DNA from: a virus
Lineage: Duplodnaviria > Heunggongvirae > Uroviricota > Caudoviricetes
Reading direction: 5' to 3' (one strand)
Virus record (IMG/VR): IMGVR_UViG_638341085_000008
Span: 1 to 13,231 of that record
Length of the DNA stretch: 13,231 bases
Shown here: piece after piece, positions 1 through 13,231 of the stretch
Position numbering within the stretch: position 1 is the first letter of the stretch
How the letters are laid out: every line of letters begins with the position of its first letter
Translations under genes and position numbers: made by a program
Notes under the pieces: generated by a model
The model's input: the letters and a program-made list of their open reading frames with translations, nothing else
What the model was told of the DNA's origin: nothing
Database searches by the model: none

Positions 1-34
1 CGTACTGCAGGGTTTTCGCACTTGCTGACATCAC

Positions 35-57
35 AGGGGCTCCGGCCCCTTCTTCTT
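35..57 (+). terminator. candidate intrinsic terminator or attenuator upstream of the chaperone gene
   Basis: GC-rich hairpin AGGGGC-TCCG-GCCCCT (35-50) followed by a T-rich but interrupted tract TCTTCTT (51-57). Confidence 0.25.
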
Positions 58-119
58 AATCTCCTTTAATATCCGTCACGTCCACCGCCAGACATACTGC
101 TCTGAATTTACAAAGGAGT

Positions 120-461
120 ATGATCATGTCACAGACCCAGTCCGATACTTTTACGCTGTCTTATCCTTTCACCACTGCTGCAGGTACCAGAATTGAACAG
201 ATTGAACTGAAACGCCTGACAGTAAAAGACCTGAAGCAGGTGCGCAAAATCAACAAAGACCCGGCAGACTGGGACGAACCACTGATTGCCCGTAGCACCG
301 GTATCCTCCCGGAAGACCTCGATAACATGGATCTTGCCGACTATATGGAGCTGCAGAAACGATTTCAGAAAATCACTGGGCTGGGCAAGAGCGACAAAAA
401 CACTGATGCAGGCGCAGGGCCTGCTGGCGAGATGGTTCAGGTTTCAGCCGGGGGAGATTGA
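120..461 (+). CDS. tail assembly chaperone (P2 gpE / lambda gpG-like)
   Basis: 113-codon ORF immediately upstream of the tape measure gene; AGGAG at 114-118 is better spaced for the in-frame ATG at 126 than for ATG 120; overlapped by a shifted-frame extension as in tail chaperone pairs. Confidence 0.7.
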   Translation: MIMSQTQSDTFTLSYPFTTAAGTRIEQIELKRLTVKDLKQVRKINKDPADWDEPLIARSTGILPEDLDNMDLADYMELQKRFQKITGLGKSDKNTDAGAGPAGEMVQVSAGGD

Positions 462-543
462 TGCCCTCGATACTGACGATCTGGAGATGTGGCTGGAGCA
501 GGCTGAAGAGCAAATCAAAAGCGAGTTCGGCGACAATCAGTAA
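448..543 (+). CDS. E'-like frameshift extension of the chaperone (fusion product about 140 aa)
   Basis: Frame +1 relative to the chaperone stays open to TAA 541-543; protein-like acidic sequence only from about 451 (GEIDALDTDDLEMWLEQAEEQIKSEFGDNQ); G5 run 450-454 lies two codons before the chaperone stop TGA 459-461. Confidence 0.45.
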   Translation, partial: PGEIDALDTDDLEMWLEQAEEQIKSEFGDNQ

Positions 544-557
544 CAACGTATCACTTA

Positions 558-578
558 ACAGCCGCCAGTCGCGGCTGT
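558..578 (+). other. stem-loop in the E'-T intergenic leader
   Basis: ACAGCCGC (558-565) pairs with GCGGCTGT (571-578), loop CAGTC; not followed directly by a T tract (T7 run is at 609-615). Confidence 0.3.
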
Positions 579-635
579 TCTGCATGGGGTTCAGACACTT
601 CCCTTCCGTTTTTTTGCTTTCAGAGGATAGCCACC

Positions 636-3101
636 GTGGCCAGTGAATTTTCAGTCGGCGTCATTATTGGCGGCATTGTCGGGAGCAGCTTCCGCTCAGC
701 CGTCAGTGGCACCCGACGCGCCCTTGATTCCCTTGGTGATACCTCCCGCCGTCTGCAGGAACGCCAGAATGCCTTAACCCGGGCAACAGAACGTTATGGT
801 CAACTGGGTTCTTCCCGGATGCAGCATCTCAACAGCGAGTTGCTGCGGGTAAGCCGCACCATGGAGCAAATTGAACGTCAGCAGCGCCGTCTGTCAGCAG
901 TATCAGCCACCGGTGATGCGTTGAAGGCTAACCGCCTGGCGCTCTATGGTCAGGGTGCAGAAACCTATGCTATTGGCAGAACGCTGGGCGCACCGGTCAT
1001 GGCCTCGGTTAAACAATATGCCTCGTTTGAATCACAGTTGCGGGATATCAGTGTCACAGGAGACCTGGATGCAAAACAGGAACGTGCAATTGGCCTGGCT
1101 ATCAGACAGGCCTCGCTGAAGGTTAACCAACTGCAGGAGTCTCTGTTAGGGGGAGTCGGACAATTAGTTGCTGATGGTATGGCCCCCGAACGGGCAGCAA
1201 CGTTTGCAGAGATGCTTGGAAAGACCGCTACAGCAACCAAAGCCGATATGACCGACCTTGCCAAAATGACTTATGCCTTCAGCGATGCACTCAGAATCAC
1301 TGATGCGAAAGAACTTGAACAGGCGTTTGGCATTGCGGCAACAGGAGCCAAACTTGGGTCATTTGAGCTGAAGGATATGGCAAAAGCATTACCCGGTATG
1401 GCGAAAGCCTTCGCTGCTCGTGGTATTTATGGAAAAGATGCGATTACCCAGATTGTTGCCAGTCTGGAGGTCGGTAAAGGTAGTGGCTCTGCAGAGGAAG
1501 CGGTCACCAATATGTCCAACTGGCTGGCAGCAATGGGCCGCGGAGATACCATCCAGAAATATGCTAAAGCCGGGGTGGATTACCAGGGGTCAATGCAGAA
1601 TTACGTCGCTCAGGGTTTTTCGCAGTACGAAGCTTCACTGATGATTGCCAACCGTTTTATCGACAGTAAAGGCAAAGCGTTTTTGCAGCAATGGAAAGCT
1701 GCAGGAGCAAGAGGCGATCAGGAAGGTCAGCAGAAACTCATGGAGTCATTTGGTCTGGCTGAGGTCTTTACCGATATTCAGACTGTCAACCATTTACTGT
1801 CAATGCGACAGGGCTGGGATAAATACCTTTCCAGTAAGCAGGAAATGAATGCTCCGGCTGCAATGTCTACCCTGGATAAGGATGCTGCAAAGCAGAATGA
1901 TACGCTTGAAGGTCGCTGGCGCAGAATGCAGATCGGCTTTAATGATTCTGCTATCAGCATCGGGCAATCCTTGCGTCCGGCTTTGCTCCAGTTGGGTGAA
2001 ACATTTATTCCTTTAATGGACAGCGTCGGCAAATGGATAGCGGCAAATCCGCAGCTCGTCAGCAGCACCATAAAGGTTGTGGGCGCATTACTCGCTTTCA
2101 GGATGGCCACTATCGGTCTCAAGTTTGGGCTGAATCTCCTTATTTCCCCCTTTGTAAGCGTCTGGAAAAATGCTGTTTTACTTCGGGCCAACTGGCTTCG
2201 TCTGATGCTCGCACTGGGGGAAGGCGGTAAACTCCGCTGGCTGGTGACAGGCTTTGGTGCCGTCGCCAGAGGAACCAGAACACTGGGGGGGGTGCTCTCA
2301 GGGGGGCTGGTTCGCGGAATTATGAGCGCCGGGCGTGCCGTTCTCTGGATTGGCCGGGCGCTGCTGATGAATCCCATCGGTCTCGTTATCACCGCCGTCG
2401 CGGCAGCAGCTTACCTTATCTACCGCAACTGGGGCGCTGTCAGTAGCTGGTTTAAACAGCGCTGGGCTGACATTCAGGAAGCCTTTAACGGCGGCATCGC
2501 GGGAATTGGTAAACTGCTGGTTAACTGGTCTCCGGCAGGTCTGCTTTATAAAGCCTTTGCGGCTGCGCTGAAATATCTCGGCGTTGATTTGCCGGCGAAA
2601 TTCACCGACTTCGGTGGTCATCTTATTGACGGGCTGATAAATGGCATCAGAAACAAATGGGCGTCACTGAAAACCAGCATAACCGGAATGGGTGACAGCA
2701 TCAGTGACTGGTTCAGCGAAAAGCTGGGCATCCATTCACCGAGTCGCGTGTTTATAGGCTTTGGTGACAATATCGCGCAGGGTGCCGCCATTGGCCTGCA
2801 ACGGACCACTCCGCTTGCTGCACTGGCCGGGCAGCGCCTGGCCGCTGAAATGACACCGGATGTTCCCCGTATCCCGTCGCCGGAAATCATGGCTGCCGGA
2901 TATTCAGGCCGTGGCGCAACTGCAACCGGCGGTGGAGCGTCTGGCGGTATCCAGGTCAGCTTTAATCCTCATTTTTTCCTCAATGGTAAGGAAACCGCAG
3001 CGCCTGCCGGGCTGGCTGGTGCCCTGAATATGAGCCTGCATGAGCTGGAAAAAATGCTGGAGCGTCTGCTGGCTCAGAAACAACGTAAGGAGTACAGCTG
3101 A
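636..3101 (+). CDS. tail tape measure protein (P2 gpT / Mu gp42-like)
   Basis: 821-aa ORF, GTG start with GAGGAT 7 nt upstream; position directly after the chaperone pair; Ala/Gly/Leu-rich with hydrophobic glycine-zipper-like stretches; stop overlaps next start (TGATG). Confidence 0.85.
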   Translation: MASEFSVGVIIGGIVGSSFRSAVSGTRRALDSLGDTSRRLQERQNALTRATERYGQLGSSRMQHLNSELLRVSRTMEQIERQQRRLSAVSATGDALKANRLALYGQGAETYAIGRTLGAPVMASVKQYASFESQLRDISVTGDLDAKQERAIGLAIRQASLKVNQLQESLLGGVGQLVADGMAPERAATFAEMLGKTATATKADMTDLAKMTYAFSDALRITDAKELEQAFGIAATGAKLGSFELKDMAKALPGMAKAFAARGIYGKDAITQIVASLEVGKGSGSAEEAVTNMSNWLAAMGRGDTIQKYAKAGVDYQGSMQNYVAQGFSQYEASLMIANRFIDSKGKAFLQQWKAAGARGDQEGQQKLMESFGLAEVFTDIQTVNHLLSMRQGWDKYLSSKQEMNAPAAMSTLDKDAAKQNDTLEGRWRRMQIGFNDSAISIGQSLRPALLQLGETFIPLMDSVGKWIAANPQLVSSTIKVVGALLAFRMATIGLKFGLNLLISPFVSVWKNAVLLRANWLRLMLALGEGGKLRWLVTGFGAVARGTRTLGGVLSGGLVRGIMSAGRAVLWIGRALLMNPIGLVITAVAAAAYLIYRNWGAVSSWFKQRWADIQEAFNGGIAGIGKLLVNWSPAGLLYKAFAAALKYLGVDLPAKFTDFGGHLIDGLINGIRNKWASLKTSITGMGDSISDWFSEKLGIHSPSRVFIGFGDNIAQGAAIGLQRTTPLAALAGQRLAAEMTPDVPRIPSPEIMAAGYSGRGATATGGGASGGIQVSFNPHFFLNGKETAAPAGLAGALNMSLHELEKMLERLLAQKQRKEYS

Positions 3102-3985
3102 TGTTTGCCGTACTGGGTGATATTGAGTTTGAACTGATTACCTACTGGGACGGCTTCGAGGCCACGTTTGGCGTCGATTATGCGGAGCATGCCCGCATCG
3201 AGGGTAAACCCGGCCTGCAGTTCGTCGGCGACAGGCTGGACGAAATCCAGATAAGCCTGGTCTTCCATCAGCATTATTGTGTGCCCGACGTGGAGCTGGC
3301 GAGAGTGCGAACAGCCATGAAGGCCCATCAGGCACTGGCGCTGGTCTTCGGCAACGGTGACTATCGCGGCTGGTTCGTGATTACCGATGTGACCGCAACC
3401 AGCGAGCAGACAGACAGCACCGGTAACGTGCTGGCTGTCAGTGCCACCGTGTCTCTCCGGGAATACACCGGTGACCCGAAAAATCCTCTGCAACCGCCGG
3501 CAATACGCAGGCAGGTTCCCGGTGCCGGGGCCATATCTGGTGCTGTTCCATCGCCTTCCGGGGTGGCGCAGTTCGTCCGTAACGGCGTCAACTATGCGAA
3601 ACAGGCGCAGTCTGTACTCCAGACCACCATCAGTGCCGTTCGGGTGGCGCAGAAAATGAAGGGTAACCCCGTTGTCGCGCTGACCCGTGTGCCGGGACTG
3701 ATGAGCGGACTGGGTAATATATCCGGCGCTCTGGGGAAAAGTATTCCGGCGTTTAATGTACTCTCTGAATCCATGCCCGATGCCATCAGTCTGGCCAGAA
3801 CAGCCAGTGAGGCAGCCACGTATGTACAGCAGGCGCAGTCGGCGCTGAGTGGTGTGGACAAAAGAAATATTGCAGGTGCTCTGGATACCGTTTCCGGGCA
3901 GCTTAACGCCGCCGGCACAGCATTCAACCGCATGTCTCCGGGATTAAGTGCAATGGCCGCCAGAATACTGACGAGGAGTGTGTGA
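3101..3985 (+). CDS. gpU-like tail protein with about 150-aa C-terminal Ala/Ser/Gly/Gln-rich extension
   Basis: N-terminal ~135 aa recognised as P2 gpU-type tail terminator fold; AAGGAG 3087-3092; start overlaps tape measure stop; 294 aa versus about 160 aa expected for a plain gpU. Confidence 0.65.
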   Translation: MFAVLGDIEFELITYWDGFEATFGVDYAEHARIEGKPGLQFVGDRLDEIQISLVFHQHYCVPDVELARVRTAMKAHQALALVFGNGDYRGWFVITDVTATSEQTDSTGNVLAVSATVSLREYTGDPKNPLQPPAIRRQVPGAGAISGAVPSPSGVAQFVRNGVNYAKQAQSVLQTTISAVRVAQKMKGNPVVALTRVPGLMSGLGNISGALGKSIPAFNVLSESMPDAISLARTASEAATYVQQAQSALSGVDKRNIAGALDTVSGQLNAAGTAFNRMSPGLSAMAARILTRSV

Positions 3986-4197
3986 TGTTTCTTGAACATA
4001 TTACCCGTGACGGAGAGCGCTGGGATTCGCTGGCATGGCAGTACTACGGTGACCCGCTGGGCTATCCCCGGATTATTGCAGCCAATCCGCACGTGGCCAT
4101 TACGCCAGTGCTGCCCTCCGGGTTGTTGTTACTGATCCCGGTTATTGAGGCTGAAGATGCCCGTACAGAAGAGGATATTGCCCCATGGCTGAGATAA
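3985..4197 (+). CDS. tail protein X-like (small LysM-like protein)
   Basis: 70-aa ORF with YYG...AANP...LP pattern recognised as P2 gpX family; GAGGAG 3973-3978 six nt before ATG 3985 (GTG 3982 is an alternative start); overlaps upstream stop TGATG. Confidence 0.65.
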   Translation: MFLEHITRDGERWDSLAWQYYGDPLGYPRIIAANPHVAITPVLPSGLLLLIPVIEAEDARTEEDIAPWLR

Positions 4198-5339
4198 ACA
4201 GTACTGCGCAAGCCACATCAGCGTTAACCGGCGTCAGCGATGTGCTGACGCCGGTATTCACTCTGTGGTATTTGCAGAAAAACATCACCTCTGATATCGC
4301 GCCTTATGTCACCCGTGTGGTCTGGAGCGATAACATCAAAAATGAGTCTGATACCATTGAGGTGGAGCTGGACGACACCGATGGCCGCTGGCTGGATAAG
4401 TGGTATCCGGGCAAGGGTGACACGCTGACGCTGAAAATGGGTTATCAGGGCGAGAAACTGCTGTCCTACGGTACATTCTCAATAGACGAGATCGAAGTGA
4501 GTTCGCCCGCGTCCGTTGTCGCTATCCGTGGGGTGGCCACCTCGGTTAACAGTGCTCTGCGGACTAAATCCAGCCGTGGTTTTGAGAACACCACGCTGGC
4601 AGCTGTTGCGGGTCGGATTGCCAGAAAGCACCGGCTGAAACTGGTGGGCAGCATTGAGTCCATCAGAATCGACCGGGTGACCCAGTATGCTGAAACCGAC
4701 GTGGGTTTTCTGCGCCGGCTGGCCAGCGAGTATGGTTATGCAGTGAAAGTGGTCAGTGACCAGTTGATTTTTTCTCATCTGGCCACATTGCGCAGTCAGG
4801 AGCCGGTCAGGCAGTTAAAACCGCAGGATGTGGCCCACTTTTCCCTGCGTGACACCATCAACCGGGTCTATAAATCTGCAAAGGTAAAACACCAGAAAAG
4901 CAGCAGTAAAAAACTGATCGTCTACGAAGCTGATGGTGGTACCCGTGAAAGCGACAAAAAGCTCAAAGGCGGTAAGGTTACCAGCGCTGACTCACTTAAA
5001 GTTAACAGCCGCGTCAGCGACCCGGACAGTGCCCGGATTAAAGCGGATTCAGCACTGGCCAGACATAACGAATACCAGCAGAACGGCTCCCTGACGCTGA
5101 CGGGAACGCCTCAACTGACAGCAGGCAACAAAATTGAACTGGTGGGCTTTGGACAATTATCCGGTCCATGGCTGATAATCACTGCCCGCCATGCGTTTGA
5201 GCGTAACAGCGGCTACACCACAGAGCTGGAAGTGGCACGGGGGCCAGTCACAAGAGGGAAAAAACAAAAAACTCAGAAACTCACGGTTTATCACCCGGAT
5301 GGCAGTACATCGACGGTGATTAAGGAGAAGAAAAAATGA
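4185..5339 (+). CDS. gpD-like tail/baseplate hub protein (phage late control D family)
   Basis: 384-aa ORF, size and position match P2 gpD / Mu P; start overlaps the gpX-like gene; stop overlaps next start (ATGA). Confidence 0.8.
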   Translation: MAEINSTAQATSALTGVSDVLTPVFTLWYLQKNITSDIAPYVTRVVWSDNIKNESDTIEVELDDTDGRWLDKWYPGKGDTLTLKMGYQGEKLLSYGTFSIDEIEVSSPASVVAIRGVATSVNSALRTKSSRGFENTTLAAVAGRIARKHRLKLVGSIESIRIDRVTQYAETDVGFLRRLASEYGYAVKVVSDQLIFSHLATLRSQEPVRQLKPQDVAHFSLRDTINRVYKSAKVKHQKSSSKKLIVYEADGGTRESDKKLKGGKVTSADSLKVNSRVSDPDSARIKADSALARHNEYQQNGSLTLTGTPQLTAGNKIELVGFGQLSGPWLIITARHAFERNSGYTTELEVARGPVTRGKKQKTQKLTVYHPDGSTSTVIKEKKK

Positions 5340-5848
5340 CTGGTGTCACCCGCCAGGTCGGTACGGTCAGTGCCGTTGATGCCGACAGGGTTCAGGCCCG
5401 CGTTCGTCTGCCTGAATGCGATAATCTGCGCACAAACTGGCTTAACGTGCTGCAGCGCAATACCCAGGATAACAAGGATTACTGGCTCCCTGACGTGGGG
5501 GAGCAGGTTGAGGTGCTGCTCGATGCCAACGGCGAGGATGGTGTTATTCTGGGCGCGGTGTACTCAGACGTCGATAAACCGCCGTTCGGTGATAAAAACG
5601 TCCGGGGCACGAAGTACGCTGATGGCGCGGAGTTCAGTTATGACCGCGCGACCCATACGCTGACGGTCAAAGGAGGTATCGAGCATGTGGTGATCGAGGT
5701 TGCAGTGGGTATTAGTCTGAAAGGGAAAACCATTGATTTGACAGCTGACACTATCATGGTGAACGGCAATCTTGAAATCAAAGGGAGTACCCATGCGACT
5801 GGTAACATATTTGCAGATGGACAGAATTCCAATCATCACTCTCACTAA
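5336..5848 (+). CDS. gpV-like baseplate spike protein
   Basis: 170-aa ORF after gpD; AAGGAG 5322-5327; recognised as P2 gpV / Mu gp45 type; C-terminal His cluster NSNHHSH. Confidence 0.8.
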   Translation: MTGVTRQVGTVSAVDADRVQARVRLPECDNLRTNWLNVLQRNTQDNKDYWLPDVGEQVEVLLDANGEDGVILGAVYSDVDKPPFGDKNVRGTKYADGAEFSYDRATHTLTVKGGIEHVVIEVAVGISLKGKTIDLTADTIMVNGNLEIKGSTHATGNIFADGQNSNHHSH

Positions 5849-5929
5849 TTTTTCAAGTATGTGACTCCATTTCCTCTCCCGCGGATATGATAGAATTTTT
5901 TAATTAACACTAATTTGGCGGGGACTTAA

Positions 5930-6649
5930 ATGCGGTTATCAAGATCCTTATGTAAAGTAGTTGGCGATGTCATTGCTAACTCAGGCTCTCATGCAGCTTT
6001 AGATACGTTATTTCTTACTTCGGGAGCACCAGGAAACCCTCCGGCAGGATCTCATAGTACAAAATGGAAAGACTGGTTATTTCTTGCAGGGCAAGATCCA
6101 GATACAGATAGTCTGGCAGTTCTGGGCGGAGTAATTGAGGAGTTTATGGATTTACCTCCAAAAGAAGGTACTCCCGAATATGCAGAATGGAAGGAAAAAC
6201 GAGACAGAATTGAAGCTGTGTTACAAGAGAATGGACTTAGATATTATCGTTTTGGTCGAGTGTTGCCTGAAGGCCACATCCCGTCACACAATATGGATTA
6301 CCCAGAGACCATAATTACTTATCAACAGCCAGTAATGCCAGAAAAAGTTGAGAACTTACTGGAAAGGCTGGTCAAAGGCTTACAGCGAGCAATGCATCCA
6401 CTTACTCATAGGCGAAAAGGAAGCCAGTCATTATCTTTTAGCAATGAATATGACGTGCAAGACCTTCTCCATGCATTGCTCAGACCATGGGTTCAGGACA
6501 TCCGCCCAGAAGAGTTTACTCCAAGTTACGCTGGTTCAAGTACTCGAATGGATTTTTTGTTACCTGCGCATAAATTAGTACTGGAAACCAAAATTGTTCG
6601 TGATCGTTCTCATGCAAAGAAAATCGGCGATGAACTTATTATCGATTAG
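5930..6649 (+). CDS. IS2-truncated cargo gene, 5' part (239 codons); restriction-endonuclease-like D-x10-E-x-K signature, function unknown
   Basis: ATG 5930 with GGGGA 5 nt upstream; low-GC sequence; motif D208 (6551-6553), E219 (6584-6586), K221 (6590-6592) in RMDFLL...LVLETKIV; reading frame ends in the TAG that is the first 3 nt of IS2. Confidence 0.7.
   Translation: MRLSRSLCKVVGDVIANSGSHAALDTLFLTSGAPGNPPAGSHSTKWKDWLFLAGQDPDTDSLAVLGGVIEEFMDLPPKEGTPEYAEWKEKRDRIEAVLQENGLRYYRFGRVLPEGHIPSHNMDYPETIITYQQPVMPEKVENLLERLVKGLQRAMHPLTHRRKGSQSLSFSNEYDVQDLLHALLRPWVQDIRPEEFTPSYAGSSTRMDFLLPAHKLVLETKIVRDRSHAKKIGDELIID
6642..6646. repeat. IS2 target site duplication, left copy (TCGAT)
   Basis: TCGAT directly flanks the IS2 left end; identical to 7978-7982. 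Confidence 0.9.
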
Positions 6650-6737
6650 ACTGGCCCCCTGAATCTCCAGACAACCAGTATCACTTAAATAAGTGATAGT
6701 CTTAATACTAGTTTTTAGACTAGTCATTGGAGAACAG

Positions 6738-7103
6738 ATGATTGATGTCTTAGGGCCGGAGAAACGCAGACGGCGTACCACACAGGAAAAGATCGCAATT
6801 GTTCAGCAGAGCTTTGAACCGGGGATGACGGTCTCCCTCGTTGCCCGGCAACATGGTGTAGCAGCCAGCCAGTTATTTCTCTGGCGTAAGCAATACCAGG
6901 AAGGAAGTCTTACTGCTGTCGCCGCCGGAGAACAGGTTGTTCCTGCCTCTGAACTTGCTGCCGCCATGAAGCAGATTAAAGAACTCCAGCGCCTGCTCGG
7001 CAAGAAAACGATGGAAAATGAACTCCTCAAAGAAGCCGTTGAATATGGACGGGCAAAAAAGTGGATAGCGCACGCGCCCTTATTGCCCGGGGATGGGGAG
7101 TAA
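6738..7103 (+). CDS. insC: IS2 OrfA (InsC) transposase regulatory/DNA-binding protein
   Basis: Sequence recognised as IS2 InsC ([24 protein letters not shown]...); ATG 6738 is the likely true start, the longer ORF from 6693 is an upstream extension. Confidence 0.95.
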
Positions 7104-7966
7104 GCTTAGTCAGCCGTTGTCTCCGGGTGTCGCGTGCGCAGTTGCACGTCATTCTCAGACGAACCGATGACTGGATGGATGGCCGCCGCAGTCGTCACAC
7201 TGATGATACGGATGTGCTTCTCCGTATACACCATGTTATCGGAGAGCTGCCCACGTATGGTTATCGTCGGGTATGGGCGCTGCTTCGCAGACAGGCAGAA
7301 CTTGATGGTATGCCTGCGATCAATGCCAAACGTGTTTACCGGATCATGCGCCAGAATGCGCTGTTGCTTGAGCGAAAACCTGCTGTACCGCCATCGAAAC
7401 GGGCACATACAGGCAGAGTGGCCGTGAAAGAAAGCAATCAGCGATGGTGCTCTGACGGGTTCGAGTTCTGCTGTGATAACGGAGAGAGACTGCGTGTCAC
7501 GTTCGCGCTGGACTGCTGTGATCGTGAGGCACTGCACTGGGCGGTGACTACCGGCGGCTTCAACAGTGAAACAGTACAGGACGTCATGCTGGGAGCGGTG
7601 GAACGCCGCTTCGGCAACGATCTTCCGTCGTCTCCAGTGGAGTGGCTGACGGATAATGGTTCATGCTACCGGGCTAATGAAACACGCCAGTTCGCCCGGA
7701 TGTTGGGACTTGAACCGAAGAACACGGCGGTGCGGAGTCCGGAGAGTAACGGAATAGCAGAGAGCTTCGTGAAAACGATAAAGCGTGACTACATCAGTAT
7801 CATGCCCAAACCAGACGGGTTAACGGCAGCAAAGAACCTTGCAGAGGCGTTCGAGCATTATAACGAATGGCATCCGCATAGTGCGCTGGGTTATCGCTCG
7901 CCACGGGAATATCTGCGGCAGCGGGCTTGTAATGGGTTAAGTGATAACAGATGTCTGGAAATATAG
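7061..7966 (+). CDS. insD: IS2 OrfB (InsD) transposase catalytic domain; full transposase made as InsCD by -1 frameshift
   Basis: Sequence recognised as IS2 InsD; sits in the -1 frame relative to insC; slippery A-AAA-AAG at 7055-7061. Confidence 0.95.
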
Positions 7967-7977
7967 GGGCAAATCCA

Positions 7978-7982
7978 TCGAT
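7978..7982. repeat. IS2 target site duplication, right copy (TCGAT)
   Basis: Identical to 6642-6646, directly flanks the IS2 right end. Confidence 0.9.
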
Positions 7983-8141
7983 ATAGAGCATTATCGTCGG
8001 CACTCTGATTGCAAAAATCTCTGGTGTGTCATCTACGATCCGAACCAGCTTATTACTAATTCTGAGGGGCTGAAATCTGATCTTGAGGGGAAGAGAGTTT
8101 CTAAAGACGGAGAACTTATCGTCAAGGTTTTCGTAATTTAA
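7983..8141 (+). pseudogene. 3' fragment (53 codons) of the IS2-disrupted cargo gene
   Basis: After removing IS2 plus one TCGAT copy this segment is in frame with 5930-6646, giving a 292-aa ORF ending TAA 8139-8141. Confidence 0.75.
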
Positions 8142-8195
8142 CAAACGTATCAATAACTCCTTTTTAAATCCCTTTAATATCGTTCTTTTCTTACT

Positions 8196-8211
8196 GGGGC
8201 AATACTGCCCC
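8196..8211 (+). promoter_or_regulatory. hairpin abutting the gpW-like start codon
   Basis: GGGGCA (8196-8201) pairs with TGCCCC (8206-8211), loop ATAC; ATG at 8213; no Shine-Dalgarno within 5-10 nt of the ATG. Confidence 0.35.
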
Positions 8212-8212
8212 C

Positions 8213-8560
8213 ATGAAAACGACCTCAGTATTCTGGCAACCGGCTCTGCAGGCTCCCGGCGAAATCGTCCGGGGGCTGGATGATATCCAGCAGTCCATCC
8301 AGATCATCCTGCGGACTCCCCGCGGCAGCGACCCGCATCGCCCAGAGTTCGGCAGCAATCTGCACCTTTATATCGACTGGCCTGTCGACCGGGCCATTCC
8401 GCATGTGGTTCGCGAATCCGTCGATGCCATCAGGCGCTGGGAACCCCGCTGCCAGCTTATGTCGGTTAAACCCGCCGTCGACGGCGAACATCTTACGCTC
8501 CGGGTGAGCTGGAAAGGCTCAGACGGACAACCCCGTACTCAGGAACTGCTATGGCGCTGA
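8213..8560 (+). CDS. gpW-like baseplate wedge protein (gp25 family)
   Basis: 115-aa ORF, size and position match P2 gpW / Mu gp46; overlaps next gene by 10 nt. Confidence 0.8.
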   Translation: MKTTSVFWQPALQAPGEIVRGLDDIQQSIQIILRTPRGSDPHRPEFGSNLHLYIDWPVDRAIPHVVRESVDAIRRWEPRCQLMSVKPAVDGEHLTLRVSWKGSDGQPRTQELLWR

Positions 8561-9654
8561 CAGAACCCGATTTTATTGAACTCGATGCCGATAAAATCAC
8601 GGCAGAAATGATTGCGAAATATGAAGCGGATACCGGCAAAACGTTGTACCCGGCACAGGCAGAACGTCTGCTGATAGATCTGTGGGCCTATCGCGAAATG
8701 CTGGTCAGGGTGGCGGTACAGGAGGCGGCGAAGCTGAATCTGGTCGCCTTTTCCCGGGAGCCGATGATTGATTACCTCGGAGAACTGGTTGGTGTATACC
8801 GCCTTCCCGCGCAGCCTGCCACCACCACACTTCAGTTCTCTGTGGATGAGGCACTGGCCATTGATGTGCTGATCCCGGCAGGCACCCGCGTCAGCGCTTC
8901 CGACAGCGTGATTTTTGCCACCGATACAGATGTAGTGCTGAAGGCCGGTTTGCAACTGGTCAATGCCCCTGCCACCTGTACTGAGCCGGGTACCTCTGGC
9001 AACGGCTGGCAACCGGCTCAGGTCAGTCAGCTGCTTGATGAGATTGATAACGTTGACCTGCTGGTGACCAATCTGACGGCCAGCACTGGCGGTTCAGAGC
9101 AGGAAGACAATGACCGACTCCGGGAGCGTATCAGGCTGGCCCCGGAGTCATTCACCAATGCCGGAAGCCGTGGTGCATACCGTTTTCATGCCATGGGGGC
9201 GCATCCCAGTATTGTCGACGTCGCTGTTCTTTCTCCCGTTCCCGGTACTGTCGAGCTGTATCCACTGCTCAGCACTGGTCTGCCAGACAGCAGTATCCTC
9301 ACTCTGGTAGAGAGTTTCTGTTCTGACGAAAAAGTCAGACCACTCACTGATACCGTGCGGGCTAAAACACCTGTTCAGGTGGATTACACCATTGAAGCCA
9401 GGATTACGATCTATCGTGATCAGGATGCAATGTCGGTAAAGGACAACGCTAACAGCGCCATACAGAACTGGGTGGCATCACGTGCCGCCACGCTGGGACG
9501 CGATATTGTCCCCAGCCAGATTATCAGTGCATTGTCCGTTTCCGGGGGGTACCAGGTTGAACTGGTGACACCGGCACTGCGGGTGGTTGCAGAAAACGAA
9601 TGGGCAAACTGTACGGCAATCACTCTTAACGTGACAGGGGTGTCCGATGGCTGA
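8551..9654 (+). CDS. gpJ-like baseplate protein
   Basis: 367-aa ORF following gpW in the conserved W-J-I order; start overlaps gpW stop, stop overlaps gpI start. Confidence 0.8.
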   Translation: MALTEPDFIELDADKITAEMIAKYEADTGKTLYPAQAERLLIDLWAYREMLVRVAVQEAAKLNLVAFSREPMIDYLGELVGVYRLPAQPATTTLQFSVDEALAIDVLIPAGTRVSASDSVIFATDTDVVLKAGLQLVNAPATCTEPGTSGNGWQPAQVSQLLDEIDNVDLLVTNLTASTGGSEQEDNDRLRERIRLAPESFTNAGSRGAYRFHAMGAHPSIVDVAVLSPVPGTVELYPLLSTGLPDSSILTLVESFCSDEKVRPLTDTVRAKTPVQVDYTIEARITIYRDQDAMSVKDNANSAIQNWVASRAATLGRDIVPSQIISALSVSGGYQVELVTPALRVVAENEWANCTAITLNVTGVSDG

Positions 9655-10225
9655 GGCGCTACGACTACCGCCACCGCTTGAGGGTGATATCAGTCTCAAA
9701 ACGCTGGGAAGACTGGCCGAACGGCTGGATAACATCGACCTGAGCGTACTGATGGTCTGTCTCGTCGATATCGTCGACAGTTCCGCGCTGCCATGGCTGG
9801 GCGAGCAGTTCTCGTTGTTCGGCGATGGCTGGGAACTGGCGGAATCGGACGATGTACGCCGCATGCTTATCAAATCCGCTATCGAGCTACACCGCTATAA
9901 AGGAACGCCGTGGTCAATCCGGGAAATTATCCGCCGTTTTGGCTTTGGCGAAGTAGAGCTGATAGAAGGTACGGGGCAGATCGGCTACGACGGTAAACAC
10001 AGTTACAACGGACTTTTCGTCCATGGCGATGCACAAGCCTGGGCAGTCTATCGGGTCATCCTTCAACAGCCCATCACTAATGATCAGGCAGCGCTGTTAC
10101 GTCAGACGCTCGCTGCCTTTGCTCCGGCTCGCTGCCATCTGGCAAGCCTGGAATATCAGTCTGTCGCCATTCGATACAACAGTACTACCCGTTATGACGG
10201 TAGTTACAACCACGGGAGCAGTTAA
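9647..10225 (+). CDS. gpI-like baseplate protein
   Basis: 192-aa ORF in the conserved W-J-I position, immediately before the tail fibre gene. Confidence 0.75.
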   Translation: MAEALRLPPPLEGDISLKTLGRLAERLDNIDLSVLMVCLVDIVDSSALPWLGEQFSLFGDGWELAESDDVRRMLIKSAIELHRYKGTPWSIREIIRRFGFGEVELIEGTGQIGYDGKHSYNGLFVHGDAQAWAVYRVILQQPITNDQAALLRQTLAAFAPARCHLASLEYQSVAIRYNSTTRYDGSYNHGSS

Positions 10226-10227
10226 TT

Positions 10228-11172
10228 ATGGCAAATCTACCTGAAACCCCACAGTGGGAAGACGGCATCTACCAGATTGAGGTCTCTGACCCCGTTCTGG
10301 GCGGGCCTGACGGAATTTCTAACCGTCAGGGTAAACAACTGGCCAGCCGCACGCTGTACCTGAAGCAACAGGTTGAAAAAGGCGGGGCTGACCTTGCGAA
10401 ACACATCGCGGCAGCAGACCCGCATGCCCAGTATGCACCGAAAGCCAGTCCGGCATTCACCGGCACACCAACAGCACCTACACCTGCAAATGGCGATAAC
10501 AGCAAAAAGCTGGCGACGACGGAGTTTGTGGCCAAAGCACTTGCGGCGCTTGCAGGCAGCGCCCCTGAGACACTGGATACGCTTAAAGAGCTGGCTGACG
10601 CTCTCGGTAATGATCCAAACTTTGCGACTACGGTACTGAACAAGCTGGCGGAAAAGCTGGCTAAAGACCAGAACGGCGCAGATATTCCTGATCCTGCGCT
10701 GTTTGTCAAAAACCTTGGTTTGGGAGAAGGTACTCCAGCTATTGGCGTTCCGTTCTTCTGGCCCTCCGCGGCAATGCCAAATACTGTAATCGACAGCTGG
10801 TCCAGTATGGTGTTTTTGAAGTTCAACGGGGCGAAATTTTCTGCCACTGATTACCCTGTGCTGGCGAAAGTGTTTCCTTCGCTGGTATTACCTGAAGCCC
10901 GCGGTGATTTCATTCGTATCTGGGATGACGGGCGAGGTGTAGACGGTGGTCGCGAATTATTAAGCTGGCAGGCAGCTACAAACTTTTCTCAGTTTGCCGG
11001 GAATATAGGCGATGGTGCGGGCCACGCAATTAATTTTCATGATGGTATCGCCGGAAATCAGCCAGGATTTTCACGATTTAATTTCACCAGTAACTCTGTG
11101 GGTGATGGTGTGAATTTTGTTGCCGTCAGACCGCGAAATATTGCATTTAACTTTCTGGTGAGGGCTAAATGA
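10228..11172 (+). CDS. tail fibre protein: constant N-terminal part plus currently expressed variable C-terminal part (Sv)
   Basis: 314-aa ORF; GGGAG 10214-10218; N-terminus with QWEDGIYQIE motif typical of P2 H / Mu S fibres; a recombination site lies inside the gene at 10703-10728. Confidence 0.85.
   Translation: MANLPETPQWEDGIYQIEVSDPVLGGPDGISNRQGKQLASRTLYLKQQVEKGGADLAKHIAAADPHAQYAPKASPAFTGTPTAPTPANGDNSKKLATTEFVAKALAALAGSAPETLDTLKELADALGNDPNFATTVLNKLAEKLAKDQNGADIPDPALFVKNLGLGEGTPAIGVPFFWPSAAMPNTVIDSWSSMVFLKFNGAKFSATDYPVLAKVFPSLVLPEARGDFIRIWDDGRGVDGGRELLSWQAATNFSQFAGNIGDGAGHAINFHDGIAGNQPGFSRFNFTSNSVGDGVNFVAVRPRNIAFNFLVRAK
10703..10728. other. left recombination (crossover) site of the invertible segment, hix/gix-like
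   Basis: TTGTCAAAAACC-TT-GGTTTGGGAGAA matches the 26-bp TTnTCnnAAACC-nn-GGTTTnnGAnAA pattern; 10715-10729 is an exact inverted copy of 12542-12556. Confidence 0.6.
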
Positions 11173-11765
11173 TGACCCCAATTTTTGATGAAAATGGACT
11201 GGCTACAGTGCCGGGCGATATGCGTTGTTTTTATTATGATGCAGTAACGTATGAATATACGGGCTGGTCTGATGAATATATTAATACTGGTGTAAGTATG
11301 CCCGCCTGTTCCACTGGTATTGACCCGGGCGAAAACATTCCGGGAAAAGTGGCAGTATTTACGGGTAAGGGATGGAGCCATGAAGAAGACCATCGCAATG
11401 AGACTGTTTACTCAACAGAAAATGGTGCAACTGTTACAGTGGATTATATCGGTGCCATCAAAGACGGTTATGTCACGCTTTCACCGTTAACGCCATACGA
11501 TAAATGGGATGGTGAGAAATGGGTGACAGATTCTGAGGCACAACACGGTGCCGCAGTAGAAGCGGCAGAAGCACAGCGCCAGTCACTTATTGATGCAGCA
11601 ATGGCTTCCATTAGTCTGATTCAGCTGAAATTACGGGCCGGGCGGAAGCTGATGCAGGCAGAGACCTCCCGACTTAACACTGTGCTGGATTACATTGACG
11701 CGGTGACGGCAACAGATACCAGCACCGCGCCGGATGTCATCTGGCCTGAACTGCCGGAGGAGTAG
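11169..11765 (+). CDS. tail fibre assembly protein (Tfa; P2 gpG / Mu U-like), currently expressed orientation
   Basis: 198-aa ORF overlapping the fibre stop; C-terminal motif LDYIDAV...DTSTAPDVIWP shared with the inverted paralogue. Confidence 0.8.
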   Translation: MMTPIFDENGLATVPGDMRCFYYDAVTYEYTGWSDEYINTGVSMPACSTGIDPGENIPGKVAVFTGKGWSHEEDHRNETVYSTENGATVTVDYIGAIKDGYVTLSPLTPYDKWDGEKWVTDSEAQHGAAVEAAEAQRQSLIDAAMASISLIQLKLRAGRKLMQAETSRLNTVLDYIDAVTATDTSTAPDVIWPELPEE

Positions 11766-12177
11766 GCCATTCAATATCTGGCGCACTGGAAGTATCGACC
11801 AGCTCCAGTGCGTCCAGATAATCCAGCCACAAATTATATTGCGCCAGTTCCTCACCTTTCAGACGACCAATAGCCGCTTTACCAGCCCATTGTTTACTGT
11901 TCATATAATCGTTGGCCTGATTAATCAATTGCTGCTTTTTCAGTTCGGCTGCAGCAATCTGTTCCTCATGTGTTGGTGGTGGAATTTCAGACCATGCAGG
12001 AAAACCATTTTCTCCAGCGATACGGATTTTTCCTTTCGGCGGTAATCCGGAAAACTCAATATACACTTGCTCATCAACTTCAACAGCATCATCTGGCCAT
12101 GAGTCAGCTTGCGTGTAATCCTCTTTCATCTCCAAGGGATAGAAAGAGTTTGTAGTCGCGGAATATATGTAATTCAT
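11737..12177 (-). CDS. alternative tail fibre assembly protein (Tfa'), inverted orientation
   Basis: 146-aa ORF on the minus strand with GGAG upstream of ATG 12177; C-terminus LDYLDALELVDTSSAPDIEWP resembles Tfa. Confidence 0.75.
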   Translation of the reverse strand: MNYIYSATTNSFYPLEMKEDYTQADSWPDDAVEVDEQVYIEFSGLPPKGKIRIAGENGFPAWSEIPPPTHEEQIAAAELKKQQLINQANDYMNSKQWAGKAAIGRLKGEELAQYNLWLDYLDALELVDTSSAPDIEWPTPPAVQAR

Positions 12178-12203
12178 TTTTCACTCCATAAAGTTAAAAG
12201 AAA

Positions 12204-12554
12204 TTAACACCCTAATGCGAAAAATGAAGCACCGATACCGGGTACGCCTGCTCTGGAAATAAATTTCACCGGGTCCTGGTTATAACCGGCACAAGCTATA
12301 TAGCCAACATTTGCACTGCCGGGAGTGTAATCCTGAGTTGCAAATACCCGCAGACATCTATTCGGAAATGCAATCGGAAAATAGGTTACTGTGTCCTGAG
12401 ACGTCAGCGAAACATCAATTGGCCCCCATTGAATAATTAAACCGGATGGCAATTTTTGATATCCAGTACCTGAAACAGAAAGCGTGAAGCTACCCATATC
12501 AGGTATCTGATTCGTCCCTGTCCCCACATTCCTTTTTGCCGCTTCTCCCAAACC
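12204..12554 (-). CDS. alternative tail fibre C-terminal segment (Sv'), promoterless and start-less until inversion
   Basis: Minus-strand frame is open from the right crossover site to stop at 12204-12206; after inversion it fuses in frame to the fibre constant part (...[16 protein letters not shown]...); the ORF-track start is a TTG inside the crossover site. Confidence 0.65.
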
Positions 12555-12568
12555 AACGTTTTCGTCTT
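12543..12568. other. right recombination (crossover) site of the invertible segment
   Basis: TTCTCCCAAACC-AA-CGTTTTCGTCTT; inner half identical as inverted repeat to the left site, outer half degenerate; 55 nt upstream of the invertase start. Confidence 0.6.
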
Positions 12569-12622
12569 AACTCCCACCTATACCAGCTATGTATTTTTAA
12601 CAAAACAAAGAGGATATTTTTC

Positions 12623-13195
12623 ATGCAAATTGGCTACATTCGTGTGTCAACAAATGACCAGAATACAGATTTACAACGAAACGCACTGAACTGCGCAGGA
12701 TGTGAACTGATTTTTGAGGATAAAATCAGCGGAACAAAGTCAGCCCGACCGGGATTGAAAAAGCTGCTCAGAACGTTATCAGAAGGAGATACGCTCGTTG
12801 TCTGGAAGCTGGATAGGCTGGGCAGAAGCATGAAACACCTTATCACTCTTATTGAGGAACTGCGGGGAAAAGGGGGTAATTTCCGTAGTCTTACAGACAG
12901 CATTGATACGTCAACACCCATGGGACGTTTCTTTTTTCACGTCATGGGGGCTTTAGCGGAAATGGAGCGCGAATTAATAGTTGAACGAACACTGGCCGGA
13001 CTTGAGGCAGCACGTGCACAGGGGCGTATTGGCGGACGCCGTCCGAAACTGACAAAAGAGCAACATGAACAAATAGCAAGGCTGATCAAAAATGGCTATA
13101 GCAGGAAACAGTTGGCAATTATTTACGATATCGGTATATCGACGATTTATCGTTATCACCCTGTAGAGGAACTCCAAACTCAAGCTAAGTTGTAA
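12623..13195 (+). CDS. serine DNA invertase, Gin/Pin/Cin/Hin family
   Basis: 190-aa ORF from ATG 12623 (GAGGAT RBS 12609-12614); N-terminal resolvase motif GYIRVSTNDQ with catalytic Ser, C-terminal helix-turn-helix; the 12536 ORF-track start runs through the crossover site and has no RBS. Confidence 0.9.
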   Translation: MQIGYIRVSTNDQNTDLQRNALNCAGCELIFEDKISGTKSARPGLKKLLRTLSEGDTLVVWKLDRLGRSMKHLITLIEELRGKGGNFRSLTDSIDTSTPMGRFFFHVMGALAEMERELIVERTLAGLEAARAQGRIGGRRPKLTKEQHEQIARLIKNGYSRKQLAIIYDIGISTIYRYHPVEELQTQAKL

Positions 13196-13231
13196 TTCTT
13201 TTTCAGATATTGAAATGCCGCAGCGATGTAA

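Follow-up and report, generated by a model that had tools for sequence, protein, structure and literature searches.

IS2 insertion in a PD-(D/E)xK nuclease gene of a Mu-like Escherichia coli prophage and further insertion sequences in the same gene

The closest characterised relative of the protein considered here is bAgaN, the long-B Argonaute-associated nuclease (BPAN), which was described as a Mn2+-dependent nonspecific DNase (PMC10620215). It forms an autoinhibited dimer that is released when Argonaute reports a target, and its C-terminal domain alone is toxic (PMC10620215; PMC13535254). Likewise, EcbAgaN is an Argonaute-associated abortive-infection DNase in which the N-terminal domain restrains the nuclease until a trigger is perceived (PMC10620215; PMC13535254). 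The present analysis concerns a cargo gene whose predicted nuclease domain is homologous to that of bAgaN, and the insertion sequence (IS) IS2 that interrupts this gene in IMG/VR record IMGVR_UViG_638341085_000008 (Caudoviricetes), an Escherichia coli prophage DNA of which positions 1-13,231 were analysed as a whole (the window, to whose numbering all coordinates refer unless another sequence is named). It is considered highly probable that a single IS2 hit inactivated a predicted nuclease, possibly of defence type, carried by the prophage as a moron, and that this dispensable moron subsequently gathered further IS elements.

The insertion took place at the TCGAT of codons 238-239 of the cargo gene, and the two copies of this pentamer, at 6642-6646 on the left and 7978-7982 on the right, abut exact IS ends in the layout TTATTA TCGAT / TAGACTGGCCCCC ... 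GGGGCAAATCCA / TCGAT ATAGAGC. The 5' fragment of the gene (5930-6649, plus strand) encodes a 239-aa product identical to WP_042815592.1, whose stop codon TAG consists of IS2 bases 1-3 (6647-6649) and whose last residue retained, D239, lies 18 residues past K221 of the E-T-K motif. Thus, the product keeps its N-terminal helical domain together with the stretch of the nuclease domain that contains D208...E219-T-K221. The 3' fragment (7983-8141, plus strand) holds codons 240-291 and the stop codon, and it encodes the final strands of the nuclease fold along with nine residues that are invariant. A previous reading made from the sequence alone had proposed that IS2 landed 18 codons after the ExK lysine and that its left-end TAG terminated the open reading frame (ORF) at once, both of which agree with these positions, whereas its figure of 53 residues removed has to be corrected, since the 159 nt cut off correspond to 52 residues plus the stop codon. 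When IS2 and one TCGAT were removed in silico, an 876-nt ORF of 291 aa was restored, which is identical to WP_001371051.1, and the possibility that the two fragments derive from different genes was discarded, given that the repaired ORF is one exact and common protein. A GTG-start ORF of 66 aa (7941-8141) was also noticed, which begins inside the right end of IS2 and continues in frame into the 3' fragment; its RefSeq entry, WP_244578079.1, is labelled 'hypothetical' or 'PD-(D/E)XK nuclease domain-containing', and it is a chimeric leftover rather than a gene.

The repaired site and its flanks were compared by megablast with 5,426 complete E. coli genomes, of which 17 matched. The gene was uninterrupted, with a single TCGAT and 99.9-100% identity, in 11 of the 17, and the remaining six carry broken alleles. 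An exact-sequence look-up placed the 291-aa protein on 809 contigs and the 239-aa WP_042815592.1 on 10, thereby supplying the uninterrupted alleles that the sequence-only reading had suggested seeking. In these records, WP_001371051.1 is labelled 'PD-(D/E)XK nuclease domain-containing protein' or 'hypothetical protein', between flanking genes annotated as 'phage baseplate assembly protein V' and 'GPW/gp25 family protein'. The IS2 junction of the window was found, base for base, in five other complete genomes, and a truncated product ending at this junction occurs on 13 contigs, six of which were listed; five of these six short-read contigs run from unique sequence 24-53 nt into the left end of IS2 and then stop, and the sixth is without IS2. 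Because 11 genomes have the unoccupied site with one TCGAT and five have the same junction, the repeat represents a real target duplication and not a chance occurrence, and the insertion is unrearranged, as had been claimed. Both gene fragments of the window show zero substitutions relative to the intact alleles of JNEC-KY202 and CFIAFB20190167, and its IS2 is identical to other copies; to judge from this sequence identity, the insertion is young, in line with the recent origin previously suspected.

The inserted element occupies 6647-7977 on the plus strand, co-directional with the cargo gene and the tail operon, and measures exactly 1331 bp between the TCGAT copies as read from the sequence, starting with TAGACTGG and ending with GCAAATCCA. 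Its terminal inverted repeats, of about 41/42 bp, are imperfect, with the left one at 6647-6688 (plus strand) and the right one at 7936-7977 (minus strand) defined by an alignment of the two ends that includes mismatches and one gap; the first four bases of the left repeat, TAGA, recur at 7984-7987 in the right flank. The two ORFs overlap and are uninterrupted. The first, orfA (InsC/TnpA, 121 aa; 6738-7103, plus strand), matches NCBIfam NF006928 'IS2 repressor TnpA' over positions 1-121 of 121 (276 bits against a cut-off of 229, E 2.9e-83), while orfB (InsD/TnpB, 301 aa, with the transposase catalytic domain; 7061-7966, plus strand) matches NF006918 'IS2 transposase TnpB' over 1-301 of 301 (728 bits against a cut-off of 597, E 1.3e-219). 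The A6G slippery site A AAA AAG, at which the programmed -1 frameshift produces the OrfAB transposase, is located at 7055-7061 on the plus strand, and RefSeq labels an identical copy as 'IS3-like element IS2 family transposase, programmed frameshift'. The full 1331 bp are 100% identical to IS2 copies on chromosomes and plasmids of the enterotoxigenic E. coli (ETEC) strains 503025, 503440 and 504211. Since its sequence is intact and multiple identical copies reside in the same strains, the window IS2 is apparently transposition-competent. Therefore, the description of a full-length element of 1331 bp with both ends and both ORFs intact was borne out. In the complete genomes as a whole, IS2-like sequence was found at 24,058 places in 4,853 of the 5,426, with a median of 4 places per IS2-bearing genome.

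The consequences of the truncation can be predicted from the domain organisation of the repaired protein. Residues 143-286 match Pfam PF18742 (REase_DpnII-MboI) on profile positions 2-147 of 150 (160 bits against a cut-off of 27, E 4e-47), and an AlphaFold model comprises five helices and a hairpin, a disordered linker and then an alpha/beta nuclease domain. In an alignment of 36 homologues, D208, E219 and K221 are invariant; these residues lie on the model strands 207-211 (D208) and 216-222 (E219 and K221) and align with D298, E309 and K311 of EcbAgaN, which is the only solved sequence relative of the cargo protein (PDB 23wq; E 2.3e-7, query 142-250 on 231-342). In addition, a PADLOC match was obtained solely to 'Aga_Helical-REase' (query 136-274 on profile 224-362, E 1.8e-30), and the N-terminal 135 residues gave no match in Pfam, PHROG or NCBIfam searches or in a Foldseek comparison with the PDB. 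According to the alignment, the truncation removes the invariant residues H242, Y243, H246, C249, L252, W253, C254, Y257 and D258, and according to the model it removes helix 240-244, strand 251-257 (LWCVIYD), helix 266-273 and the hairpin 275-290 (strands 275-279 and 282-290), that is, half of the predicted beta-sheet including its central strand 251-257. A PD-(D/E)xK core deprived of half its sheet would not be expected to fold, and the 239-aa product is therefore very probably a null allele, which supports the view of the sequence-only reading that this copy is probably non-functional through loss of a strongly conserved part of the nuclease.

The same gene has been struck by other elements. 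In five ETEC genomes (503025, 503440, 504211, 503829 and TW10573), the exact IS2 insertion of the window is accompanied by IS100, whose target duplication GGAAA corresponds to window 6361-6365 (junctions 6517/8469 in the compared sequence L002). TW10573, and it only, additionally carries ISEc43, of the IS66 family, with the target duplication AATTGTTC at window 6593-6600 (sequence L021), directly past the ExK codons. ATCC 43896 harbours an independent insertion of ISCro1, duplicating TTATTTCT at window 6077-6084 (sequence L003). Thus, the notion that inactivation by IS elements is a recurring pattern gained support, since IS100, ISEc43 and ISCro1 each carry their own target duplication. An allele with IS2 and without IS100 was not found among the complete genomes; the IS2-only allele of the window is the ancestral state of the ETEC series. 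Four IS insertions fall within these 876 bp; the approximately 40-kb prophage of 503025 has none elsewhere, and none was seen in the flanking 6-8 kb that were inspected for TW10573 and ATCC 43896. This clustering is clearly non-random. Only two of the four events, those of IS2 and ISCro1, hit a live gene, and IS100 and ISEc43 entered a gene that was already broken. In a prophage that is intact in other respects, the moron would be the only part needed by neither phage nor host, and because of this the first hit, by IS2 in one ETEC lineage and by ISCro1 in ATCC 43896, may have been tolerated or mildly favoured, after which the dead gene would gather further neutral insertions, such as those of IS100 and ISEc43.

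A further allele points to the loss of IS2 from this site. In L011, a 55-kb short-read contig (ERR11738211), the identical 239-aa product is encoded with no IS2 present, positions 8700-8730 of the contig corresponding to window 6642-6650 joined to 7984-7990 and reading ATCGAT TAGA GCATT. This site equals the empty site minus one A (window 7983), and the scar, ATCGATTAGAGC, is the exact product of a deletion between two TAGA repeats, namely IS2 bases 1-4 (6647-6650) and the flank at 7984-7987. L011 shares T2972 and T4349 with the IS2-bearing window, L002 and L021. In fact, T4349 is present in every IS2-bearing sequence examined, and T2972 in all of them except contig L013 (G2972), while G2972 and C4349 are found in all five inspected uninterrupted alleles and in the ISCro1 allele. 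IS3-family elements transpose by a copy-out-paste-in route through a circular intermediate, in which the donor copy stays in place. Since this mechanism leaves the donor copy, the scar would be due to a host-mediated deletion between the TAGA repeats and not to excision by the transposase, so that L011 probably represents a near-precise loss of IS2 that left a -1 frameshift. The converse order, with the -1 allele as ancestor of the IS2 allele, was rejected, as the right flank of the window still has an intact ATAGAG.

The gene is situated in the tail module of a BcepMu-like (Mu-like) transposable prophage, in a neighbourhood formed by the tape measure, GpU-like, tail X, GpD-like, V, W, J, I, tail fibre and invertase genes. 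In strain 503025, the whole prophage of about 40 kb lies between ppiD and ybaV, and its genes for DDE transposase, ExeA-type B protein, Gam, Mor, holin, SLT lysin, portal and head proteins are annotated as intact. The left neighbour of the cargo gene encodes baseplate assembly protein V (5336-5848, plus strand), an ORF whose product is identical to WP_000148264.1, annotated as 'phage baseplate assembly protein V' in the uninterrupted locus L001, and the right neighbour, downstream of IS2 in the same operon, is the intact GPW/gp25 baseplate gene W (8213-8560, plus strand; WP_000859110.1). The related phages KP12 and PhiKM have a V-W gap of only about 55 bp, and their conserved V-W spacer aligns to window positions from about 8150 to 8212, downstream of the cargo gene. 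Because of this alignment, the cargo is placed as a block right after the stop codon of V (5849-8150, plus strand; approximately 970 bp without IS2), with a G+C content of 41.7% against about 54% in the flanking tail genes. By its absence from close relatives at that position and its deviant base composition, the cargo gene is classed as an AT-rich moron. A tblastn search of 50,697 phage records detected no sequenced phage with the cargo gene, the only match being a weak one, of 33% identity, in a Clostridioides phage.

Concerning its expression, a scan of 5700-8400 for promoters and terminators returned one internal promoter-like site and no terminator, with fewer sites than in shuffled sequences. 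An extended -10-like motif, TGATAGAAT, lies at 5888-5896 (plus strand), 33 nt before the cargo ATG within the AT-rich spacer, and is not listed by the two-hexamer promoter scan; it could possibly supply the moron with its own promoter in the lysogen. Directly before the ATG of W, a perfect hairpin, GGGGCA-ATAC-TGCCCC (8196-8211), is found without a T-run. It is kept in KP12 and PhiKM, both of which are without the cargo gene, and it may act on W as a signal for translation or RNA processing. Several other features of the window and its relatives were recorded. Tail-fibre and tail-fibre-assembly cassettes (10730-12560 and 12536-13195) stand beside a Pin/Gin-type recombinase, L011 has 11856-12562 in the opposite orientation to that in the window, and 10730-12540 is unaligned in several otherwise near-identical prophages, so that the region near 10730-13195 appears to be an invertible, swappable host-range region. 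A second cargo-like block is present in the 503025 prophage (L033, 31155-33758), between the lysis genes and the repressor region, with a DUF2441 protein and two hypothetical ones. Additionally, the window is the only sequence with G9548 in gene J, all relatives having T, and two A residues (after positions 3 and 8) are missing from window positions 1-9 in comparison with all related sequences, which is probably a ragged or low-quality contig end.

Beyond E. coli prophages, the cargo protein belongs to a large family, with more than 3,300 homologues of about 290 aa and 67-91% identity in Yersinia, Salmonella, Enterobacter, Dickeya, Serratia, Pantoea, Pseudomonas, Burkholderiales and others. 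An exhaustive search indicated that the full-length architecture forms a tight family and that the nuclease domain by itself is attached to a wide range of N-terminal regions; PF18742 is found fused to AbiJ_NTD3, DUF2321 and many unannotated N-terminal domains, and is listed as a Detocs effector domain. Many homologues are named 'transposase' in NCBI records though they have no transposase domain, a misannotation that has been propagated. The genomic contexts are varied: in Yersinia prophages the homologue sits in the same V-W slot, in E. coli it is also found in an integrase/AlpA island, in a Salmonella island it adjoins TIR_2 and DUF4365-TPR genes, in Permianibacter it adjoins an SduA_C protein, and in Pantoea it occupies a chromosomal site near a Tlde1-domain gene. 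In Pseudomonas aeruginosa, a homologue with 70% identity is part of a constant four-gene block (3516-7304 of L004, L006 and L007) made up of a 234-aa unknown protein, a 483-aa trypsin-like protease, the restriction endonuclease (REase) protein and a 104-aa unknown protein, which was found in three unrelated chromosomal or integrative and conjugative element contexts and may be a composite defence island. No methyltransferase was observed in the window or beside the homologues in seven other contexts, no PIWI/Argonaute gene adjoins the cargo gene, whose neighbours in the window are V and W, or its homologues in any of the eight contexts covered, and no other constant partner gene was detected in the contexts examined.

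The domain homology, the moron status and the defence-island neighbours are the reasons for reading the intact protein as a defence factor. By analogy with bAgaN, it would be a self-contained, normally autoinhibited DNase that protects the lysogen against other phages or mobile DNA, in which the N-terminal domain would sense a trigger or restrain the nuclease and the C-terminal domain would degrade DNA. The chances that WP_001371051.1 is such a stand-alone defence nuclease carried by a prophage are put at about even. A bolder proposal, that it founds a new and widespread family (more than 3,000 sequences) of stand-alone anti-phage or anti-plasmid DNases in which a helical N-terminal sensor gates a bAgaN-like nuclease, and that its activity is costly enough in ETEC rich in plasmids and prophages for the gene to be repeatedly disrupted by IS elements, as in the four IS events and the frameshift scar kept after the loss of IS2, is tentative.

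Other explanations were considered for the same observations. The inactivation could have been positively selected, the intact nuclease being costly or self-toxic in ETEC backgrounds, for example by attacking plasmids, prophages or the chromosome if mis-triggered, with IS knock-outs having swept. Such selection would account for the concentration of four properly duplicated insertions in 876 bp when the rest of the 503025 prophage and the inspected flanks have none, and for two independent first hits, by IS2 and ISCro1, in two lineages; it is also consistent with the toxicity of the homologous bAgaN nuclease domain once freed from its N-terminal domain, and with a scar allele that leaves the gene still dead. 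However, only two of the four events struck a live gene, the intact allele is far commoner (809 contigs) and is kept in diverse hosts, the AT-rich and dispensable gene may be the sole place where insertions escape purging, and ETEC genomes are IS-rich, with 12-15 chromosomal places matching IS2 in two strains listed. Selection is thus regarded as possible but doubtful. Polarity of IS insertions in operons is well established, and it could be this effect that matters rather than the loss of the nuclease, IS2 lowering the expression of W, J, I and the tail fibres from the late tail operon and leaving the prophage crippled and locked in the chromosome. The element, of 1.3 kb (in TW10573 the nested IS DNA amounts to as much as about 5.9 kb), lies inside the operon between V and W, in the same orientation as a tightly packed co-directional tail block, and the absence of terminator- or promoter-like sites between the cargo gene and W suggests that W probably needs read-through from upstream. 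Nevertheless, all tail genes farther downstream are still intact ORFs in each genome that bears an IS, contrary to what long-standing relaxation would predict, and the intact moron already parts V from W harmlessly. As the sole or principal consequence, polarity is rather unlikely, although it is compatible with the inactivation of a dispensable moron and does not exclude it.

A different role for the gene was also weighed, namely that it encodes an orphan restriction enzyme or a free-standing endonuclease of the homing type, which would spread selfishly through cleavage of empty sites and whose loss would be neutral to host and phage. A stand-alone REase-fold gene placed precisely in the intergenic spacer of a conserved phage operon, polymorphic for presence and absence among related phages, would fit this role, and 67-72% identity across Enterobacterales, Pseudomonas and Burkholderiales suggests frequent horizontal movement. 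Outside Escherichia and Yersinia prophages, however, the contexts are unrelated and share no single cognate site, the neighbourhoods (TIR_2, DUF4365-TPR, SduA_C) resemble defence islands, bAgaN is a nonspecific immune effector DNase and no site-specific homing enzyme, and the methyltransferase that a true restriction-modification enzyme would need is not found nearby, which makes a selfish role quite improbable. Finally, repeats commonly cause misassembly, IS2 is multicopy (a median of 4 places per genome having it), and two 1-nt gaps occur within the first 9 bases of the window when it is compared with all relatives, so that a misplaced repeat had to be considered. An assembly artefact is nonetheless effectively refuted, its probability being close to nil, by the identical junctions in five independently finished genomes and the passage of five of the six listed short-read contigs from unique sequence into the left end of IS2, to which the perfect 5-bp target duplication around exact IS ends adds.

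Returning to the inactivation of a defence-type DNase moron by a single IS2 hit, several observations weigh against it or against parts of it. Intact alleles predominate (809 contigs against a few dozen disrupted), and the gene is therefore not strongly deleterious. The structural model is of moderate quality, with a mean predicted local distance difference test score (pLDDT) of 74.6 and a predicted template modelling score (pTM) of 0.45, although pLDDT reaches 80-91 for residues 1-110 and 78-89 for residues 211-291, and its comparison with the PDB by Foldseek returned nothing significant. The protein matches no NCBIfam model, its PHROG is of unknown function, no full-length match to a described or candidate PADLOC-DB 2.0 system was obtained beyond the domain-level Aga_Helical-REase, and literature searches turned up no study of this protein family. 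The putative sensor or autoinhibitor role of the N-terminal domain is pure analogy for a domain that has no detectable relative, the loss of function of the 239-aa product is one that we infer from alignment and model, and the scar of L011 is documented by a single short-read assembly.

Taken on its own, the IS2 insertion is an ordinary gene knock-out of a well-known kind, unusual only in that the gene is disrupted elsewhere by three other insertion sequences. It matters mainly for annotation, as the copy in the window is a pseudogene that RefSeq splits into 'hypothetical' or 'PD-(D/E)XK' fragments, one of them the chimeric ORF starting inside IS2. In addition, a natural allelic series (intact, IS2, IS2+IS100, IS2+IS100+ISEc43, ISCro1 and -1 scar) becomes available for a widespread two-domain nuclease of Mu-like prophages. 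If the protein is indeed a single-gene defence system, related to bAgaN but free of Argonaute, this series would supply ready-made controls, and the locus would be a test case for the shedding of costly defence genes by IS insertion.

Compared with known systems, the inserted element shows every sequence-level defining feature of E. coli IS2 (IS3 family, IS2 group), namely the 1331 bp, the repeats, orfA and orfB with the A6G site, the 5-bp duplication and the 100% identity; it is a plain member, one of thousands, with no difference of note. The cargo protein is less easily placed. The DpnII/MboI Type II endonucleases are the namesake of PF18742, but the cargo gene stands singly, without a methyltransferase, has an extra conserved N-terminal domain and occupies cargo slots of prophages and islands; a classical Type II restriction-modification enzyme was ruled out, since no cognate methyltransferase exists in the window or in any context examined. 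It resembles single-gene defence morons and effector nucleases (AbiJ-type fusions, Detocs REase, Card1/Can2) in being an AT-rich accessory gene in a phage late operon, and the AbiJ-type and Detocs effectors in sharing PF18742 behind swappable N-terminal domains and in having homologues beside defence-type genes, and it differs from described single-gene systems in that no defence database model covers the full protein. It shares with bAgaN the order of a helical domain at the N-terminus, a linker and a PD-(D/E)xK DNase domain at the C-terminus, the nuclease domains being homologous, whereas it has no Argonaute neighbour, an unrelated N-terminal domain and 291 aa instead of 390 aa. A role as a BPAN/Argonaute component was excluded, given that no Argonaute gene is present and that the homology is confined to the nuclease domain (residues about 136-274). 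From its predicted architecture, the cargo gene is best described as an uncharacterised, stand-alone moron encoding a two-domain protein of REase fold, a member of PF18742 at the domain level, and bAgaN is, by analogy, likely to be the model for how the protein works.

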